Part shown: positions 4,038 to 8,764 of the stretch, piece by piece
Layout: each line of letters opens with the position of its first letter
Position numbering within the stretch: position 1 is the first letter of the stretch
DNA from: a virus
Lineage: Duplodnaviria > Heunggongvirae > Uroviricota > Caudoviricetes
Length of the DNA: 9,137 nucleotides
IMG/VR virus record: IMGVR_UViG_2648501165_000018
Span: 1-9,137 of that record
Strand: one strand, 5' to 3'
Translations under genes and position numbers: made by a program
Notes under the pieces: generated by a model
The model's database searches: none
What the model was told of the DNA's origin: nothing
The model's input: only the letters and a program-made list of their open reading frames with translations

Positions 4038-4862
4038 TCAGGCGGTGAAAGTACCAATAAAGGTTTCTACTTTGCTGTCTTTGAATTTCTCAACAAGCAG
4101 ATCACGAAATTCGTTAGCCATTTCCTCCTGCACTGCTTCCAGCTGAATAATGCGCAGAACCAGTACAGGACGATCGCCAGTGATAATGCTGAGGCGTAAT
4201 TTAAACGGACGTTCTTTCAGGCCTTCAAACGGAACGCATTTGAATTCAAATGCCACTGGCATAATGTCTTTGGTTTTCGCTTCGACAGACTCCATCAGGG
4301 AGCGTTTGCCGCTGAAGTCATTGTCTTCAAAATCAGCGGTCTGGTTTGCTTCAATCGTGATTTTACGGACTGCCGCAGCTGCTTTTGTTGCCTGAATAGC
4401 GTCACCATTAGCATCAAAGCCCACAAGGTAGTCCGCCCAGTCTTCAATCCATTCTGCCAGTGACTTCTGGGAGTTACGCTCGCCATTAACAGACAACAGA
4501 GCAGAGAACGGTGCTGTCTTTTTCAGTTTGAGAGTGGCGGTGTTATCTGCGTGGCCTGGTTCATCAATAGTACCAAGATTAAGCACACTGACAGCACGCA
4601 TATTATCAGCATCGATAAAGCAGCGGGTGCCTTCATCTGCAAGATCTTTAGAATAACGGGTAAAGTCATCGATGCTGGCAGTGGAAAGCGCACCACGGAA
4701 ACGGAAGCGATTTAAATTAAATTTTTCCAGATCATGAATGCGGAAATTCTCAGGCAATGCCACAGCATCAGCACCAATCTTACTGATAATTTCATTAACA
4801 CCCTGAGCAGAAATAAGGGCATGGATTTGATTAATTGCAGTTGCGTCTAAGTTCTGAGACAT
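4038..4862 (-). CDS. yfdQ: YfdQ-like protein (DUF2303 family), function unknown
   Basis: 274 aa. The ATG at 4862 has SD GAGGA 6 nt upstream. Length and position between the YfdP-like and YfdR-like genes match the CPS-53 yfdP-yfdQ-yfdR arrangement. Assignment is by recollection, not alignment. Confidence 0.6.
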
Positions 4863-4927: not shown

Positions 4928-5290
4928 TTAACGACCTGCTGCGCGGAGTTTTCCGTCAGGTTCACCGGCAAGAGTCAGTAATTGTCCCTGGTCTTCCTGC
5001 AGAATAGTCAGACGACCACCGCGATTGACATACATCGGCGTTTCGGTGGTGTCTTCTTCGGAAATTTTCCCGCGGTTAGTCGGGCGAACATATGAGAGTT
5101 TGTGTTTGATTTTCACACGGTTCTCATCAAATGGTTCGATTTCCAGGTTGAGTGAGACCTTACCTTTGGTTTTCGTGTTCATCACACCGGAAGCGACTTC
5201 ACTGAGAACTGCGCCGATTTTGGTTTCAAATACGCCGCCGTCCAGCTCCCCGATAAATGCCTGCACATCAGTACTGCGTTCGCTAGCCAT
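4928..5290 (-). CDS. YfdP-like hypothetical phage protein (120 aa), first gene of the early-left operon
   Basis: ORF track extends to a TTG at 5476 and runs through a terminator hairpin. The ATG at 5290 (MASERSTDVQAFIGELDGG…) has SD GAGGAG 6-8 nt upstream and gives 120 aa, the length I recall for YfdP. Confidence 0.55.
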   Translation of the reverse strand: MASERSTDVQAFIGELDGGVFETKIGAVLSEVASGVMNTKTKGKVSLNLEIEPFDENRVKIKHKLSYVRPTNRGKISEEDTTETPMYVNRGGRLTILQEDQGQLLTLAGEPDGKLRAAGR

Positions 5291-5338
5291 TTTGCTGCTC
5301 CTCATCATATCGACCCTGCAAGGTCGGTTGGTTTCTCC

Positions 5339-5427
5339 ACAAAACAGAGAAGAACACCTGCGGTGGCAGCCGCCCGGATGGATTGGGTTATGAGCCCGTC
5401 GTCCGGTGATGCTCTTCTCTGTTTTGT
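5339..5427. repeat. 89-bp element bounded by perfect 15-bp inverted repeats (ACAAAACAGAGAAGA … TCTTCTCTGTTTTGT)
   Basis: Positions 5339-5353 are the exact reverse complement of 5413-5427. The 59-bp interior is GC-rich and holds further short palindromes (CCGGA…TCCGG, GCGG…CCGC). It lies in the untranslated leader just upstream of the YfdP-like RBS and directly downstream (on the minus strand) of the terminator U-tract. Confidence 0.6.
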
Positions 5428-5434
5428 AAAAAGA

Positions 5435-5473
5435 GCGGTACCAGCCGGAAGCAAGTGTACAAACTGGTACCGC
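5435..5473 (-). terminator. intrinsic terminator in the early-left leader
   Basis: 10-bp GC-rich stem GCGGTACCAG (5435-5444) / CTGGTACCGC (5464-5473) with a 19-nt loop. On the minus strand the 3' arm is followed directly by TCTTTTTAC (reverse complement of 5426-5434). Confidence 0.5.
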
Positions 5474-5904
5474 CAAAGCAGTGGCTGTTGTGGTGATCGG
5501 TGATGATCTCCGGCTTGCGGTTATTTCAGACTCTCACGGGCATTTAATTGCCCCGCCGAACAGCTCTTTTCCGCAATAGCTGCAATGTCTTTCGCGCATC
5601 AGCCTGCGCATTCACCACAACGCTGAGAGCACTTAGCCAGTTACGGCACCACACTTTGTCGCGGTTCCATAAATGCCCTCATAGTTGCACCCTGGTCTCT
5701 TCCCAGGCGTCAAACCGAATCGCCACGCTGGTTAGGCGTCTTATCAGCATCATCATTGACTTGCACATTCCGGCTACCTGGTTTGTTTGCCCGAGCAAGG
5801 AGTGGATTGTCCCCTTTAACGTCCCCAGACCGCTAACGACGCATGTGCCATACGCCGTGTTACAACCAAATTTTGTTAGTACCTTGTTTGTTGGTCTGGA
5901 AAGA

Positions 5905-5957
5905 AAGATAAAATGAAGTTGCGCATTATGCAAGTATTTTTGTTGCGAGATATGCAA
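5905..5957 (-). promoter_or_regulatory. candidate OL operators and PL-like leftward promoter
   Basis: Two copies of a 15-bp motif TTGCG-N3-TATGCAA (5919-5933 TTGCGCATTATGCAA; 5943-5957 TTGCGAGATATGCAA), centres 24 bp apart. The same motif with one mismatch occurs in the cI/cro intergenic region. On the minus strand a -35 TTGCAT (5928-5933) and a -10 TATCTT (5905-5910) are 17 bp apart and overlap the first site. Promoter assignment is by eye only. Confidence 0.35.
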
Positions 5958-6012: not shown

Positions 6013-6705
6013 TTAATTGTGTCGCTTAAGGGTTTGTGACTGGCTGATTAAGACCTTTCCAAAGACCATAAACCGGTGTTCATTTTCGCTGGTAATTCCC
6101 CATTCACGATAAATCTGGTTATCAGAAATCACCAGTAGTTTGTCAGGTATCATTTGCAGTCGTTTGACATAAATTTTATCATCAAAACCAAATACATAGA
6201 TACCATCTCCATCAAACTGATTGATACTGACATCAACGAAGATGAGATCTCCTGGCTCAATGGTTGGACACATACTGTCCCCACGAACGTTGATAACTTT
6301 AATGTGATTTGCTGGCCGTCCGCCAAACATCGATACAGCATTATCAGTTCTGTATTCAATGGCATGAATCACATCAATGACATCTCCGCCCTGGATAAGG
6401 CCATTTCCCGCACTGGCACTGATATCCAGCATTTCAATACGGAATACATCCTTCACCTGCGCAATATCCTCACTAATACTGTTTTTACATACAGTATTAC
6501 TTTTGAAGTCTGAGGTAAAGAGATCAGCAATATCAACACCTAAGCTCCTGGCAATATTACTCAGGGCTTGTTCAGTGAATTGTTTCTGCTTACCTGTTTC
6601 GAGGCGCGAGATATTCGCCGCATCCACTCCTATTGCTTCAGCGAGATCGGCGATTTTCATGTTCTTCGCCTGGCGAAGTTGTCTGACTCGATTTCCTATG
6701 TTCAT
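6013..6705 (-). CDS. CI-like prophage repressor (HTH-XRE N-terminal domain + S24 LexA-like autopeptidase domain)
   Basis: 230 aa. N-terminal HTH (VRQLRQAKNMKIADLAEAIGVDAANISRLETGK). C-terminal S24 signature with the catalytic Ser in RGDSMCPTIEPGDLIFVD and the Lys in IYVKRL, plus an Ala-Gly candidate cleavage site (SASAGNG). Divergent from the Cro-like gene. The -10-like TGTAAT ends 6 nt before the ATG, suggesting a leaderless or short-leader mRNA as with lambda PRM. Confidence 0.8.
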   Translation of the reverse strand: MNIGNRVRQLRQAKNMKIADLAEAIGVDAANISRLETGKQKQFTEQALSNIARSLGVDIADLFTSDFKSNTVCKNSISEDIAQVKDVFRIEMLDISASAGNGLIQGGDVIDVIHAIEYRTDNAVSMFGGRPANHIKVINVRGDSMCPTIEPGDLIFVDVSINQFDGDGIYVFGFDDKIYVKRLQMIPDKLLVISDNQIYREWGITSENEHRFMVFGKVLISQSQTLKRHN

Positions 6706-6802: not shown

Positions 6803-7063
6803 ATGCAATCACCATTACGGAATGTGCGTAAGGCGCACGGATTTACTTTGCAGCATGTTGCTGCGGGCGTTCAGGTCAATCCAGCGACGCTGAGTCGTAT
6901 TGAAAGACTGGAACAAATTCCATCTATCGAGCTTGCAGAACGTCTGGCCAATTTTTTTAAGGGAGAAATCAGCGAAATGCAGATTCTCTATCCTGCACGC
7001 TTTCAATCTAGTCAAAACCGGAATGAGTTAAAACCACAGGAACAGGAGGTAAGCCGTGGGTAA
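6803..7063 (+). CDS. Cro-like HTH-XRE transcriptional regulator
   Basis: 86 aa. HTH (LRNVRKAHGFTLQHVAAGVQVNPATLSRIERLE). First gene rightward of the repressor, preceded by GGAGG. Confidence 0.7.
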   Translation: MQSPLRNVRKAHGFTLQHVAAGVQVNPATLSRIERLEQIPSIELAERLANFFKGEISEMQILYPARFQSSQNRNELKPQEQEVSRG

Positions 7064-7607
7064 GCATCACTGGAAAGTGGAAAAACAGCCTGAGTGGTAC
7101 GTGAAAGCTGTCAGAAAAACTATCGCGGCGTTGCCGGGGGGTTACGCTGAAGCTGCTGAGTGGCTGGATGTAACAGAGAACGCTTTATTCAACCGCCTTC
7201 GTGCCGATGGCGATCAGTTTTTTCCGTTGGGATGGGCAATGGTTTTACAGCGTGCGGCTGGTACTCACCACATTGCGGATGCTGTCGCACAGTCTGCTGG
7301 TGGGGTGTTTGTATCACTTCCAGAAATTGAGGAAGTAGAGAACGCCGATATAAACCAGCGCCTGCTGGAAGTCATCGAACAGATCGGGAGTTACTCAAAG
7401 CAGATTCGTTCGGCAATCGAAGATGGGGTAGTGGAGCCACACGAGCAGACAGCAATTAATGATGAGTTGTATCTGTCAATTTCGAAGCTCCAGGAGCATG
7501 CAGCACTGGTCTACAAAATCTTCTGCGCTCCAGAAAAGAGTAACGCCCGCGAGTGTGCAGCTCCGGGCGTCGTGGCGTTTTGTGTCTGTGGAGAAACTAA
7601 CGCATGA
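7056..7607 (+). CDS. CII-like phage regulatory protein (186-CII/CP76-type, positional CII equivalent)
   Basis: 183 aa. GTG start at 7056 with a strong SD AGGAGGT (7044-7050) 5 nt upstream; overlaps the cro-like stop by 8 nt. Putative HTH GGYAEAAEWLDVTENALFNRLRADGDQ, followed by a …FFPLGWAMVLQRAAGTHHIADAVAQ… segment reminiscent of the phage 186 CII family as I recall it. Same position as cII in lambdoid layouts. Confidence 0.55.
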   Translation: MGKHHWKVEKQPEWYVKAVRKTIAALPGGYAEAAEWLDVTENALFNRLRADGDQFFPLGWAMVLQRAAGTHHIADAVAQSAGGVFVSLPEIEEVENADINQRLLEVIEQIGSYSKQIRSAIEDGVVEPHEQTAINDELYLSISKLQEHAALVYKIFCAPEKSNARECAAPGVVAFCVCGETNA

Positions 7608-8764
7608 ACAGTTTAACGGCAAATAACCGTTTGTCGCAACAGCTGGTGGTCAGTGTCGCTGCACACCTGTTGTTACGGCATGAATGCAGATTACCAAATC
7701 ACCTGGCTGTAAGTAACCACAGAGAACTTTACCTGACTGTGGGGGGCGAGTTGTGCAGGAACTTAACCGCTGGTTTCGTGACGGAAGAGGACTTTATGTT
7801 CATGTTATTCGTTGGGAGCCAGAAACACAGCGCGTTATCTATCTTCGCAAAGACTACCCGCATGAGTGCTTTAGTCCTTTGTGGAAATTCAGGCGTGATT
7901 TTGTTGAGTGTGAAGGACCACCAGCATATTGATTCTGCAATTCCGGGACGTTACACTGTTCAGGCACCTTATAAAGCGGGTGCCGGGATTGGCGTCCTGA
8001 AATTGTCAACGGCGATGTATGACGCGCCAGCGTCTTTTTTATCGTCCGCATTTGCTCACATCCAGATTATGGTGGGCTGGGCGGGGGCACCGAAAGGTGC
8101 GCCGGTCTCCGTTGACGCCGGTTACGCCAACCCCGTCCAGTTCACCACCAGTGAAATTGGCGTTTCCGGTGGTGGAAGTTTTTCACTGTCAACGGAGGCT
8201 GCCATCATGGCTACGATCCAAGCCCTCACTCAACCTGAAATCACCATTGACAACGGCCAGGCCGTTACCACTTCTTTGGCTGTTGCCAACTTCTTCTCCA
8301 AGCGTCACGACGATGTGCTGAAAAAGATCCGCACTCTGGATTGTTCCCCTGAGTTTTGTGCCCGCAATTTTGCGGAGACATCGATTTCGGTAAATCAACC
8401 GAACGGTGGTACACGCAAGCTCCCTTGCTATCAAATCACACGAGACGGTTTTGCGTTTCTTGCTATGGGTTTCACGGGTAAACGTGCTGCCCGGTTCAAA
8501 GAGGCATACATCAATGCCTTTAACCAGATGGAAAAACTGCTTTCAAAGCCATCCACGCTGAGCGATGCCGCAGATAACGCCAGCGTGCTTTACTCCCACC
8601 TGTCGGTAATCCACAAGGTCTGGCTGCAGCAGCTTTATCCTATGTTGGCAAAAGCTGAATCTCCGCTGGCTGTTAGCTTATATGATTATATTAATGATGC
8701 TTCGGCGCTGGCCTGCCTCATAAATTTGTCGCTGAACCCTTCAGAGGTAAGGGGGCGCAAATGA
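7604..8764 (+). CDS. Rha-domain phage regulatory protein (antirepressor-like); N-terminal extent uncertain
   Basis: The C-terminal ~185 aa (from the ATG at 8207, MATIQALTQPEITIDNGQAVTTSLAVANFFSKRHDDVLKKIRTL…ITRDGFAFLAMGFTGKRAARFKEAYINAFNQME) matches the Rha family as I recall it, and that ATG has a strong SD GGAGG 8 nt upstream. The frame is nevertheless open back to the ATG at 7604, which forms an ATGA junction with the CII-like gene; codon usage and the R/P/S-rich shadow frame argue that at least 8019-8206 is coding in this frame. The reported span is the full open frame. 8207..8764 is the conservative core. Confidence 0.5.
   Translation: MNSLTANNRLSQQLVVSVAAHLLLRHECRLPNHLAVSNHRELYLTVGGELCRNLTAGFVTEEDFMFMLFVGSQKHSALSIFAKTTRMSALVLCGNSGVILLSVKDHQHIDSAIPGRYTVQAPYKAGAGIGVLKLSTAMYDAPASFLSSAFAHIQIMVGWAGAPKGAPVSVDAGYANPVQFTTSEIGVSGGGSFSLSTEAAIMATIQALTQPEITIDNGQAVTTSLAVANFFSKRHDDVLKKIRTLDCSPEFCARNFAETSISVNQPNGGTRKLPCYQITRDGFAFLAMGFTGKRAARFKEAYINAFNQMEKLLSKPSTLSDAADNASVLYSHLSVIHKVWLQQLYPMLAKAESPLAVSLYDYINDASALACLINLSLNPSEVRGRK

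Follow-up and report, generated by a model that had tools for sequence, protein, structure and literature searches.

On the minus strand of the window, as we call the whole stretch of 9,137 nucleotides of viral DNA analysed here, positions 5339-5427 specify a three-way-junction RNA that is conserved in many prophages. One of its two interior arms ends in a near copy of the anticodon stem-loop of the initiator tRNA, and its core is found in three different genomic contexts. As a tentative explanation, we propose that the element is a structured-RNA gene within the pL transcript of a lambdoid prophage of the SfV/e14 type, whose core would be released by RNase III and would act on a host factor.

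An inverted repeat in the leader of the leftward operon

The ends of the element, ACAAAACAGAGAAGA (5339-5353) and TCTTCTCTGTTTTGT (5413-5427), are perfectly complementary and form a 15-bp inverted repeat, with an imperfect extension to 25 nt at 84%. When the window was shuffled 200 times and inverted repeats with loops of up to 100 nt were searched, the longest perfect repeat was 14 bp (obtained three times), and not one of the 200 shuffles yielded 15 bp. The real window contains only one longer perfect inverted repeat, the 16-bp terminator hairpin at 987-1022. The original prediction, that a repeat of this length exceeds chance and is placed between the U-tract of a terminator and the ribosome-binding site of a YfdP-like gene, was thus confirmed, the placement on reading the minus strand. 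It had also suggested an RNA with a long closing helix around a structured GC-rich interior. The helix, the structured interior and the position in the leader of the leftward operon are supported; the interior is, however, not simply GC-rich, it forms a specific junction of two arms instead.

The features of the region are listed here in the order of transcription from the minus strand. The promoter region, the terminator and the Shine-Dalgarno sequence with its start codon were read from the sequence; for the other features the basis is given in brackets.

5905..5957, minus strand: putative promoter pL (-35 TTGCAT, -10 TATCTT) with two putative operators, TTGCATATCTCGCAA and TTGCATAATGCGCAA
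5428..5474, minus strand: DicF-like terminator hairpin, GGCGGUACCAG ... CUGGUACCGC, with the U-tract UCUUUUU, abutting the element
5339..5427, minus strand (sense): whole element, an 89-nt three-way-junction RNA (fold, covariance model R1, covariation)
5408..5427, minus strand: 5' strand of the closing helix, ACAAAACAGAGAAGAGCAUC, directly 3' of the terminator U-tract (RNA pairs 1-20 with 70-89)
5374..5406, minus strand: arm 1, with a 7-bp stem CCGGACG/CAUCCGG, an internal loop AC / AAUC and GGG-CUCAUAA-CCC (fold and covariation)
5383..5399, minus strand: tip of arm 1, ACGGGCUCAUAACCCAA, a copy of the initiator-tRNA anticodon stem-loop (15/17 identity to tRNA-fMet)
5360..5373, minus strand: arm 2, a variable hairpin GCGG-CUGCCA-CCGC (covariation, length variation)
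5339..5358, minus strand: 3' strand of the closing helix, GGUGUUCUUCUCUGUUUUGU (fold and covariation)
5311..5338, minus strand: conserved 3' flank GGAGAAAC(C/U)AAC, then a small hairpin CGACC-UUGCAG-GGUCG (comparison of class A copies)
5288..5303, minus strand: Shine-Dalgarno sequence GAGGAG (5303-5298) and ATG (5290-5288) of the first delayed-early gene

The transcript bearing the element would be driven by the putative pL at 5905..5957, and the same layout of pL and operators is kept in ST64B, phiNP and Flotzy. At its other end, the element is located 37 nt upstream of a Shine-Dalgarno sequence, GAGGAG, that belongs to the first delayed-early gene. The product of this gene, of 120 aa (phrog_204), is 100% identical to SfV orf32. 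The 3' flank with GGAGAAAC and the small hairpin follow nearly all copies of the window type (class A, see below), irrespective of the next gene. We also considered the element itself as an intrinsic terminator and rejected this, since its helix runs into GGAGAAAC on the minus strand and into AAAAAGAG on the plus strand; the neighbouring hairpin at 5474-5428 is the true terminator.

The minus strand folds into a covarying three-way junction

The minus-strand fold of the 89 nt has a free energy of -45.5 kcal/mol (z = -7.3), a value equalled by none of 200 dinucleotide shuffles. It contains a closing helix of 20 bp, the lowest 15 base pairs of which are perfect, and RNAalifold recovered the same fold independently. 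In 30 class A homologues, 93.9% of the cells that should pair are paired, versus 37-53% when the partners are slid, and 11 pairs carry changes on both sides. The covariation score was 0.189 (0.093 in shuffles) and was reached by none of 500 shuffles. Stable folding and covariation, the checks that the original prediction had called for, are thus both found.

Changes on both sides affect 6 of the 20 pairs of the closing helix, for which 95.2% of the cells are paired in the 30 class A homologues. The length of this helix is conserved, with covariation, across all 30, and many class A copies contain one or two mismatches within it. Arm 2 is changed on both sides at three of its four base pairs and ranges in length from 14 to about 40 nt among the homologues, and the stem of arm 1 reads CCUGAUG/CAUCAGG in Klebsiella phages. 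The homologues of the second type (class B) are paired in 97.5% of the cells, again with covariation in arm 2. It is well supported that compensatory changes back all variable helices. When classes A and B were aligned jointly with MAFFT (A2), the closing helices came out of register, and this alignment was left out of the pair counts. The best-conserved part of the element is the interior arm, ahead of the helix and of the region near the ribosome-binding site.

Because it includes G-U pairs, the covariation holds on one strand only. In addition, the covariance model R1 scores the minus strand with 104.1 bits versus 40.5 bits for the plus strand. By both measures the minus strand is the sense strand. 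Two further structural readings were discarded: a kissing interaction between the loop of arm 2 and the downstream hairpin (UUGCAG/CUGC) is incompatible with the CAGUCA variant, and GCUCUU was rejected as a boxA/nut site because this motif varies among variants.

One core in three genomic contexts

Copies of the element are present in 2809 of 5426 complete E. coli genomes, with 1 to 5 copies per carrier (median 1), all of them in prophage DNA and at one syntenic position. Prophages of at least 14 enterobacterial genera carry it. Searching whole SfV and whole GZ7 with R1 gave one copy each. The homologues have lengths of 89, 90, 91, 93, 97, 108, 112 and 114 nt, and one phage contig with 60% GC has kept only the initiator-tRNA-like arm, as a plain hairpin, which suggests that the family reaches past Enterobacterales.

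In class A, the type of the window, the core comes directly after the terminator hairpin located ahead of the first delayed-early gene. In class B, found in Klebsiella phages, it is the last unit of tRNA arrays and has a 6-bp stem and an NCCA tail. The third context is that of Pantoea phage PA-1, where the core is preceded by tR' and followed by the holin, with a Q-like antiterminator as the upstream gene. The next gene downstream is orf32 here and xisE in e14, and other genes or none in other phages, so that a control specific to the YfdP-like gene, as originally considered, is not supported. None of the window proteins has a homologue in phage GZ7, although GZ7 carries the core. The core is independent of its neighbouring genes.

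The tip of arm 1 copies the initiator-tRNA anticodon arm

The sequence ACGGGCUCAUAACCCAA is identical to the anticodon stem-loop of E. coli tRNA-fMet, UCGGGCUCAUAACCCGA, at 15 of 17 positions, 14 of them consecutive; the tRNA-fMet sequence itself was checked and matches at 100% in all 5426 E. coli genomes. As in a tRNA, a 7-nt loop (CUCAUAA) with U33 and a purine at position 37 is set on GGG/CCC pairs. These pairs are invariant in class A (30/30) as well as in class B (33/33). A search of IMG/VR for variants of the middle A of CAU with the flanks kept returned just two unrelated GC-rich matches. A few copies, including those of e14 and ST64B, have the altered loops UUAAUAA and CUCAUUA.

The element is not a tRNA. 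ARAGORN reported no gene in the window and did not detect the element in bacterial or mitochondrial modes; in GZ7 it called just the two neighbouring tRNAs and not the core (calls made after lowering the threshold to 80% were inconsistent and were discarded). The Rfam tRNA model (RF00005) did not match the element even at E values up to 10. In a global alignment of the class B RNA with tRNA-fMet and with the adjacent phage tRNA-Met, similarity was confined to the loop region, and the same was seen with tRNA-Ile2 (ileX) and elongator tRNA-Met (metT).

Class B cores start 6 nt after the CCA end of a tRNA, in arrays of varying composition. A terminator follows about 80 nt further on, and no ORF is adjacent. 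Of the class B copies, 76 of 78 end in NCCA, a conservation of limited weight since the class B sequences are closely related. The window version has no 3' NCCA, here the helix is followed by GGAGAAAC. Three points were absent from the original prediction: the interior as the best-conserved part, the copy of the initiator-tRNA anticodon arm and the recurrence in tRNA arrays of unrelated phages.

A closing helix of RNase III length

RNase III accommodates about 22 bp of double-stranded RNA (PMC6212723), and the closing helix, with 20 bp, has the length of about two turns (roughly 20-22 bp) expected of a substrate. By analogy, the helix is probably cut by RNase III, within 5339-5358/5408-5427. 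The analogy leads to the dicBF operon of prophage Qin. R1 has a match of 22 bits (E 1.5e-5) to a long stem in the Qin dicBF leader (L264 1291-1376), which is weak and covers the helix only. The 3' strand of this Qin stem coincides with the 5' end of an RNase III-dependent DicF species of 190 nt, the cut being positioned by length arithmetic from the 190-nt product. A site marked as a known RNase III site is located 36 nt after dicF in the dicF-dicB spacer, within the domain 3' of the dicF terminator. Of the functions listed in the original prediction, RNase III processing is thus the one that receives indirect support. Among the sites listed in the accessible part of Table S1 of Gordon 2017, there is none in ymfH, xisE or the e14 element; e14 is repressed.

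Comparison with known RNA families

The window, GZ7, phiNP, SfV, e14, ST64B, Flotzy and Qin were searched against Rfam 15, at the gathering score and at E values up to 10, and no family covers the element. Matches to ar7, the hairpin ribozyme and MIR1094 were noise. Neither DicF (RF00039) nor STnc100 (RF02076) matches the element or the window leader, and the terminator hairpin at 5428-5474 has no Rfam match. Sub-threshold matches to DicF and STnc100 were limited to the flanks of the element in e14, SfV, ST64B and phiNP; for DicF, the hairpin equivalent to the window terminator reached 28.5 bits in e14 and 20.5 bits in phiNP. The sRNAs known as Pas all end in terminators and are thus RNAs distinct from the element.

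The window does contain a genuine C4 gene, found by the C4 model at 8065-8152; the same model does not match the element. A complement of the conserved loop is absent from the window, which makes an antisense RNA with a nearby target unlikely. In the literature, an exact-sequence search found no paper, and no description of the element emerged from searches on ymfH, prophage tRNA-like sRNAs, mEp021 antitermination, the SfV/ST64B early operon and tRNA-like decoys.

Alternative explanations

The element might be a purely cis-acting leader element that governs mRNA stability or translation for the first delayed-early gene and yields no trans product, for instance by stabilising the 5' end left by processing or by masking or freeing the ribosome-binding region. 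The RNase III hairpin of the lambda N leader is a precedent for such a role. The distance of 37 nt to the Shine-Dalgarno sequence is consistent with it, as are the GGAGAAAC motif and small hairpin that nearly all class A copies have between element and ribosome-binding site, the same arrangement before the holin in PA-1 and the helix of RNase III length. We nevertheless consider it somewhat unlikely, since the downstream gene varies (orf32, xisE, others) and conservation peaks in the interior arm, not in the helix or the ribosome-binding region. In class B the core is located at the end of a tRNA array with no adjacent ORF, thus a gene-specific leader role cannot explain its conservation. A second alternative is processive antitermination of the put type (HK022), in which the two hairpins bind RNA polymerase and confer resistance to terminators farther along the early-left operon in a phage without a recognisable N. 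In its favour, the annotation of SfV shows no N-like gene, the element contains two hairpins at the head of a long operon, and the class B copy is located upstream of a terminator. However, put RNA consists of two stems in an open V (PMC9378689), whereas the element is a junction closed by a 20-bp helix, and R1 finds nothing in whole HK022. Furthermore, the element comes after the gate terminator in class A and in PA-1, SfV has a single copy and no putR-like partner in the rightward operon, no strong minus-strand terminators follow downstream within the window, and GZ7 and PA-1 encode Q. Antitermination, which the original prediction had listed among the possible functions, is therefore very unlikely: the element stands behind the terminator, in one copy per phage, and is missing from HK022.

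That the element is a decaying tRNA gene, a functionless relic of tRNA-Met or tRNA-Ile(CAU) that has lost its D and T arms, would explain the last position in the array, the tRNA-like spacing, the NCCA tail and the anticodon-loop sequence with its CAU anticodon. It is highly improbable in view of the compensatory changes that preserve helices not found in tRNAs, a core conserved in at least 14 genera and three contexts, the lack of alignable tRNA similarity outside the loop region and the failure of tRNA finders to detect it. The perfect inverted termini and the occurrence in more than one genomic context could also indicate a palindromic mobile element (MITE/REP-like) or a site acting at the DNA level, such as a cruciform, a single-strand initiation signal or a recombinase site. 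This is scarcely credible for an element with a median of one copy, always in a prophage and at the same syntenic place, that has no flanking direct repeats, a strongly strand-asymmetric R1 score and G-U covariation on one strand only. Empty sites were not found among IMG/VR contigs, the sole pattern match being unrelated. The small mobile element of the original prediction, for which multiple copies and insertion polymorphism had been the proposed signs, is thereby not supported, and its failure to see a match to REP or ERIC is upheld, as the element does not belong to either. REP, ERIC and MITE-type repeats were rejected on the same grounds (1 to 5 copies, prophage only, no empty sites). Finally, ORFs annotated over the match in many RefSeq and GenBank records would make the element part of a small protein-coding gene ('hypothetical protein' or ymfH). 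The chance of this is negligible: the length differences between homologues are not multiples of three, the overlapping ORFs of the window start with TTG or GTG and have no ribosome-binding site, and conservation tracks base pairs and not codons.

Proposed mechanism and significance

In the explanation that we tentatively prefer, RNA polymerase would read through the terminator and the closing helix would form right behind it. Host RNase III would then cut the helix and so part the regulatory leader RNA, upstream, from the delayed-early mRNA, whose new 5' end would be situated a few bases ahead of GGAGAAAC. At the same time, the junction core would be freed as a discrete and stable small RNA of roughly 65-70 nt. 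This core would be the conserved payload. The Klebsiella-type version, which ends a tRNA array and combines a 6-bp stem with a 6-nt spacer and an NCCA tail, would be released by tRNA-maturation enzymes instead. Long-stem versions after terminators and short-stem NCCA versions after tRNAs thus fit two release routes for the same core.

Once released, the core could serve as a mimic or decoy for host machinery that reads the anticodon arm of the initiator tRNA. In its strongest form, this would be a dedicated small RNA of temperate enterobacterial phages that copies this arm, is freed by RNase III from early or late transcripts or by RNase P from tRNA arrays, and acts as a decoy or competitor, a proposal that we regard as decidedly unlikely at present. 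Candidate factors for such a decoy are the tRNA-fMet-specific VapC/MvpT toxins of Shigella and Salmonella virulence plasmids and the 30S P site with IF3.

The carriers of the element include Stx2-converting phages and Shigella serotype-converting phages, and in current databases it is unannotated or labelled 'hypothetical protein' or ymfH. With alignment, structure and covariance model in hand, it is a defined and testable RNA family that can be submitted to Rfam, and a family definition would correct this recurrent mis-annotation. The element also extends, by one module, the view of early-operon leaders in prophages as series of processed RNAs (DicF, STnc100, Pas). Should the initiator-tRNA arm prove to be a functional mimic, the element would be the first RNA of a phage to be directed at the machinery for initiator-tRNA recognition, and one system would then join the tRNA arrays of phages with RNase III processing and with toxins that target tRNAs. 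Should the decoy reading be true, it would represent a new class of RNA-based counter-defence or translation takeover.

Comparison with known systems

The element shares with tRNAs the anticodon-type 7-nt loop CUCAUAA on three G-C pairs, and in class B also the location in a tRNA array at tRNA spacing, G+1, U-1 and the 3' NCCA. The closing stem together with arm 2 amounts to about 12-13 bp, comparable to an acceptor/T minihelix. Unlike a tRNA, it lacks both the D arm and the T loop, its anticodon-type arm is built of 7 bp, an internal loop and 3 bp, and in the window version the stem is 20 bp long and CCA is absent. The mascRNA at the 3' end of MALAT1 is a tRNA-like processing module, and modules of this type can be grouped with tRNA as a comparison for the anticodon-type loop and the NCCA of class B.

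C4 of P1/P7 and the CI RNA of P4 (CL00128) are likewise small RNAs of phages, built from a closing stem plus two hairpins and excised from longer transcripts, C4 being released by RNase P. The element differs from them in that the C4 model does not match it and the window holds no target complementary to its loop. Like HK022 put, the element is a structured two-hairpin RNA that belongs to the early operon of a lambdoid phage lacking N and would act without a phage protein; it differs in its single copy per genome, in the lack of a sequence or structure match, in the long closing helix and in its position after a terminator.

Cleavage of the RNase III hairpin in the lambda N leader and of the T7 R sites reshapes mRNA ends and expression. 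Here the similarity consists in an irregular long helix in an early transcript, between the regulatory leader and the first gene; these sites, however, have no conserved apical junction that recurs elsewhere without the helix. In the Qin dicBF operon, the long stem at L264 1291-1376 that resembles the window helix in sequence is located upstream of dicF and has an AU-rich interior without a tRNA-like arm, and the domain after dicF is STnc100-like and not the three-way junction of the element. Nevertheless, in both cases a DicF-type terminator hairpin is followed directly by a domain that a long helix closes (5427-5339 in the window, approximately L264 1563-1710 in Qin), and both are leaders of a repressor-controlled early operon in a lambdoid prophage.

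Setting of the inverted repeat

The window comes from an SfV/e14-type lambdoid prophage, of which it is the immunity and early region. In this window lies an 89-bp element that is 100% identical in SfV, mEp460 and several Stx2/Stx2c phages. The sequence ACAAAACAGAGAAGA at 5339-5353 has its exact complement at 5413-5427, and at 84% the repeat reaches 25 nt. The original prediction that a perfect 15-bp inverted repeat is longer than chance would produce was borne out: in 200 shuffles of the window, searched for perfect inverted repeats with a loop of up to 100 nt, the maximum was 14 bp (three times) and none had 15 bp. The real window has just one longer perfect inverted repeat, the 16-bp stem of a terminator hairpin at 987-1022, whose loop is 4 nt long (TATGAATAAACCCATC TTTG GATGGGTTTATTCATA). 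The order of the neighbouring features on the minus strand shows that the element is read on this strand, co-directionally with all its neighbours.

Features surrounding the element (window coordinates)
6803-7063, plus strand: cro
Plus strand: CII-like gene; Ash/Rha gene
6013-6705, minus strand: S24-peptidase repressor gene
After the repressor gene and before the probable promoter (5957-5905), minus strand: terminator
Between the probable promoter (5957-5905) and the hairpin (5474-5428), minus strand: leader of ~420 nt with no convincing ORF
5474-5428, minus strand: hairpin with U-tract
5427-5339, minus strand: element
After the element, minus strand: GGAGAAAC, then a small hairpin, then GAGGAG-ATG (ATG 5290-5288)
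From ATG 5290-5288, minus strand: gene for a 120-aa phrog_204 protein, product identical to SfV orf32
Next after the orf32-like gene, minus strand: DUF2303/YfdQ gene

Two palindromic operator-like sites of 15 bp each, TTGCATATCTCGCAA and TTGCATAATGCGCAA (5905-5957, minus strand), lie immediately to the left of the repressor gene and overlap a promoter (-35 TTGCAT, 17 nt, -10 TATCTT); these are likely pL/oL. The layout is common to ST64B, phiNP and Flotzy, with different half-sites. On the plus strand, isrK (7964-8040, 62.2 bits) and the C4 antisense RNA (8065-8152, 81.4 bits) match above their Rfam gathering scores, both enclosed by a 386-aa ORF with Ash and Rha domains (7604-8764). This region has the appearance of an antirepressor module of the P1/P7 c4-ant or Gifsy-1 isrK type, and the isrK and C4 pair is also present in SfV and ST64B.

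A strand-specific, covarying junction

More than 160 distinct versions of the element, all with the same junction fold, came out of exact-core scans that covered IMG/VR and one genome for each species.

Structure of the element (RNA numbering, position 1 = window 5427, minus strand)
1-20 with 70-89: closing helix
21: unpaired A
22-54: arm 1, a 7-bp stem CCGGACG/CAUCCGG, an internal loop (AC versus AAUC), then GGG-CUCAUAA-CCC
55-68: arm 2, GCGG-CUGCCA-CCGC
69: unpaired A

Fold prediction and covariation, the checks suggested with the original prediction, both speak for this structure. The minus-strand fold of the 89 nt has -45.5 kcal/mol (z = -7.3). Covariation was analysed in an alignment of 30 class A sequences, the homologues with a long stem (20-bp helix) located after terminators. 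Paired cells amounted to 93.9%, versus 37-53% with the 3' partners slid by 1-3 columns, and two-sided pair changes numbered 11 versus 6.3 in shuffles (six pairs in the closing helix, two in arm 1 and three in arm 2). The covariation score was 0.189, versus 0.093 in shuffles, and was reached by none of 500 shuffles; RNAalifold alone yields essentially the same structure. G-U pairs, which would be mismatches on the other strand, are frequent in class A (for instance U19-G in 29 of 30), and the covariance model of the element scores 104.1 bits on the minus versus 40.5 bits on the plus strand. Thus, what folds is the minus-strand transcript, as RNA or at least as a single strand, and not the DNA as a cruciform. 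That the element is a functional structured RNA we regard as very probable.

The perfect 15-bp repeat itself belongs to the SfV-type state; in most other versions, the helix is interrupted by a C-C or G-G mismatch. Arm 2 is genuinely variable, with a length of 14 to ~40 nt and a sequence that changes freely among homologues. The 'hypothetical protein' and ymfH annotations that cover the element in many records are excluded by the homologue lengths (89, 90, 91, 93, 97, 108, 112 and 114 nt). The hexaloop UUGCAG is found both in the small hairpin before the ribosome-binding site (window 5311-5326, minus strand) and, on unrelated stems, in arm 2 of homologues such as L144, L132 and L130. It could be a protein-binding or loop-loop contact site; a simple kissing model was rejected because it does not accommodate the CAGUCA variant of arm 2.

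Resemblance to the initiator tRNA

Three consecutive G-C pairs beside a CUCAUAA loop are the hallmark of the bacterial initiator tRNA. The element's ACGGGCUCAUAACCCAA and the anticodon stem-loop of E. coli tRNA-fMet, UCGGGCUCAUAACCCGA, are identical at 15 of 17 positions, 14 of them consecutive; the tRNA sequence was confirmed with 100% identity in 5426 of 5426 E. coli genomes, annotated as tRNA-Met. The G-C triplet and loop of arm 1 show no variation in the 30 class A sequences, and in 33 class B sequences (the short-stem Klebsiella-type homologues) only the innermost pair varies (G-U). With the flanks fixed, an IMG/VR scan for a non-A middle base of CAU returned two GC-rich sequences, both unrelated, and nothing else. 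Even so, the element is not a tRNA: neither ARAGORN (bacterial and mitochondrial modes) nor the Rfam tRNA model detected one, and alignment to tRNAs showed no similarity outside the loop.

Genomic contexts and distribution

The conserved element occurs in three contexts. In the early-left leader, the class A helix starts at the first base past the U-tract of the terminator hairpin, and is followed by GGAGAAAC, a small hairpin and the first delayed-early gene, which varies by phage (orf32 in the window, xisE in e14, others elsewhere). In the Pantoea phage PA-1, the order is promoter, ~110-nt leader, terminator, long-stem element and holin. Here ORF044 (L005 3235-3849), whose deposited name is 'class II holin', encodes a Q-like antiterminator (PHROG 753, E 3.9e-51), and the holin (PHROG 1350) is encoded by ORF045 (2182-2430), for which the deposited label is 'hypothetical'. 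Since the upstream gene is the Q-like antiterminator, the PA-1 element follows tR'. In Klebsiella and Raoultella phages, class B units have the same arm 1, a covarying arm 2 and a closing stem of only 6 bp (GGCCUG/CAGGCC). They lie 6 nt past the CCA of the last tRNA in an array, a spacing equal to that between the tRNAs, with a terminator ~80 nt downstream. The arrays differ in composition (Asn, Phe, Thr, Arg, Gly, Met), and 76 of 78 class B copies have an NCCA end. No homologues of the window proteins were found in GZ7, a Klebsiella phage with a class B core; thus, the RNA core is not tied to phage proteins in its spread, and this suggests a host partner.

The versions come from phages and prophages of Escherichia, Shigella, Salmonella, Citrobacter, Enterobacter, Kosakonia, Mixta, Buttiauxella, Leclercia, Phytobacter, Pseudescherichia, Pseudocitrobacter, Raoultella, Erwinia, Klebsiella and Pantoea. 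A viral contig of 60% GC (L261, ~7960-8045, minus strand) carries the GUGACGGGCUCAUAACCCAACCCACC arm as part of a plain long hairpin that lacks arm 2, ~50 nt upstream of tRNA-Ala, beside replication genes and downstream of a repressor-like ORF; this copy hints at a family range beyond Enterobacterales.

A small mobile palindrome or repeat family had also been considered for the element, with multiple copies and insertion polymorphism as the signs to look for. The data speak against it: the 2809 of 5426 complete E. coli genomes with a match have 1 to 5 copies (median 1), and there is exactly one copy in the whole of SfV and one in the whole of GZ7. No empty site was seen in IMG/VR, where the pattern of terminator tail plus GGAGAAAC (gap up to 25 nt) retrieved one unrelated sequence, and no direct repeats flanking the element were found.

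The leader and its Qin counterpart

By analogy, the neighbourhood of the element would be a chain of processed RNAs. The hairpin preceding it resembles the 3' part of DicF, UUGGCGGUA(C/U)CAG ... CCGCCCUUUUU, and the equivalent hairpin gives sub-threshold DicF matches in e14 (28.5 bits) and phiNP (20.5 bits). Sub-threshold STnc100 matches (29-39.5 bits, gathering score 47) lie upstream of the hairpin in the leaders of SfV, e14 and ST64B, and also in Qin, where the STnc100-like domain sits between dicF and dicB. Rfam gave no DicF or STnc100 match in the window's own leader, which shares with the SfV/e14/ST64B leaders only a 21-nt block and a conserved long-range pairing of GUUGUGGUG and CACCACAAC (5621-5613 with 5495-5487, minus strand). 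This pairing brackets ~115 nt just before the terminator hairpin.

Equivalents of the long-range-paired domain
SfV (L001): 5087-5302
e14 (L002): 4087-4308
E. coli K-12 Qin (L264): 1551-1760

A 75-nt stretch of the leader (5486-5560, minus strand) shares 94.7% identity with phage P1 (near plp), P1-like phages and phage IME207 and is not present in SfV; thus, the leader is a mosaic.

Qin shows a similar arrangement: directly behind the dicF terminator comes a domain that leads to dicB and is closed by a long helix (GAAUUUUGUGAUG/CAUCACAAAAUUC). Gordon et al. 2017 mark a site 36 nt downstream of dicF as a known RNase III site and list a further one within the e14 leader; their Table S1 places this RNase III-dependent site at MG1655 1202212, in the ymfJ-cohE spacer of e14, the first part of the early-left leader. 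The region around 1202212 is a block common to SfV, ST64B, phiNP and Flotzy (AGCGAACAGGCAGGACGCCCACGAAGUAGCC ... UUCGCU). Upstream of dicF, the covariance model matches a ~22-bp stem (L264 1291-1376, 22 bits, E 1.5e-5) whose strands resemble the window helix, but its interior is AU-rich and lacks the tRNA-like arm. For Qin DicF, a 190-nt species that depends on RNase III has been observed (bioRxiv 10.1101/2023.04.14.536235); by our own length arithmetic, and not from the published figure, 190 nt back from the DicF 3' end falls in the 3' strand of this stem.

Possible function and alternatives

We propose that, when the terminator hairpin is read through, RNase III would cut the 20-bp helix, parting the leader RNA from the delayed-early mRNA and freeing the core. 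In tRNA arrays, RNase P and 3' trimming would free the same core. The main internal argument for core release as the purpose is that long stems come after terminators, and a short stem with NCCA after tRNAs. We see RNase III processing of the element as an evenly balanced proposition. The freed core would act on host machinery recognising the initiator-tRNA anticodon arm, with candidate partners being the 30S P site with IF3, MetRS, or the tRNA-fMet-specific VapC/MvpT toxins, which are found on Shigella and Salmonella plasmids (PMC4705866). A released trans-acting RNA is a tentative reading that we hold to be somewhat doubtful, and a mimic or decoy of initiator tRNA seems improbable.

It is possible that the helix and the GGAGAAAC-hairpin flank have a role in cis only, within the leader, but this would leave the class B copies unexplained. 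Antitermination of the type exerted by the put RNA of HK022 is unlikely, since the element does not match HK022, is present once per phage and lies after a terminator, strong terminators are missing further downstream in the window, and the class B and PA-1 phages possess Q. A tRNA pseudogene, a mobile palindrome, a DNA site and a coding sequence are contradicted by covariation, copy number, strand asymmetry and the indel pattern.

The element had no match in Rfam 15, with tRNA finders or in a full-text literature search, and the Pas, DicF and STnc100 RNAs of such leaders are different molecules. A family that combines an initiator-tRNA-like arm with dual packaging appears to be undescribed; its kind is a known one, that of processed phage RNAs, RNase III stems and tRNA-like modules.
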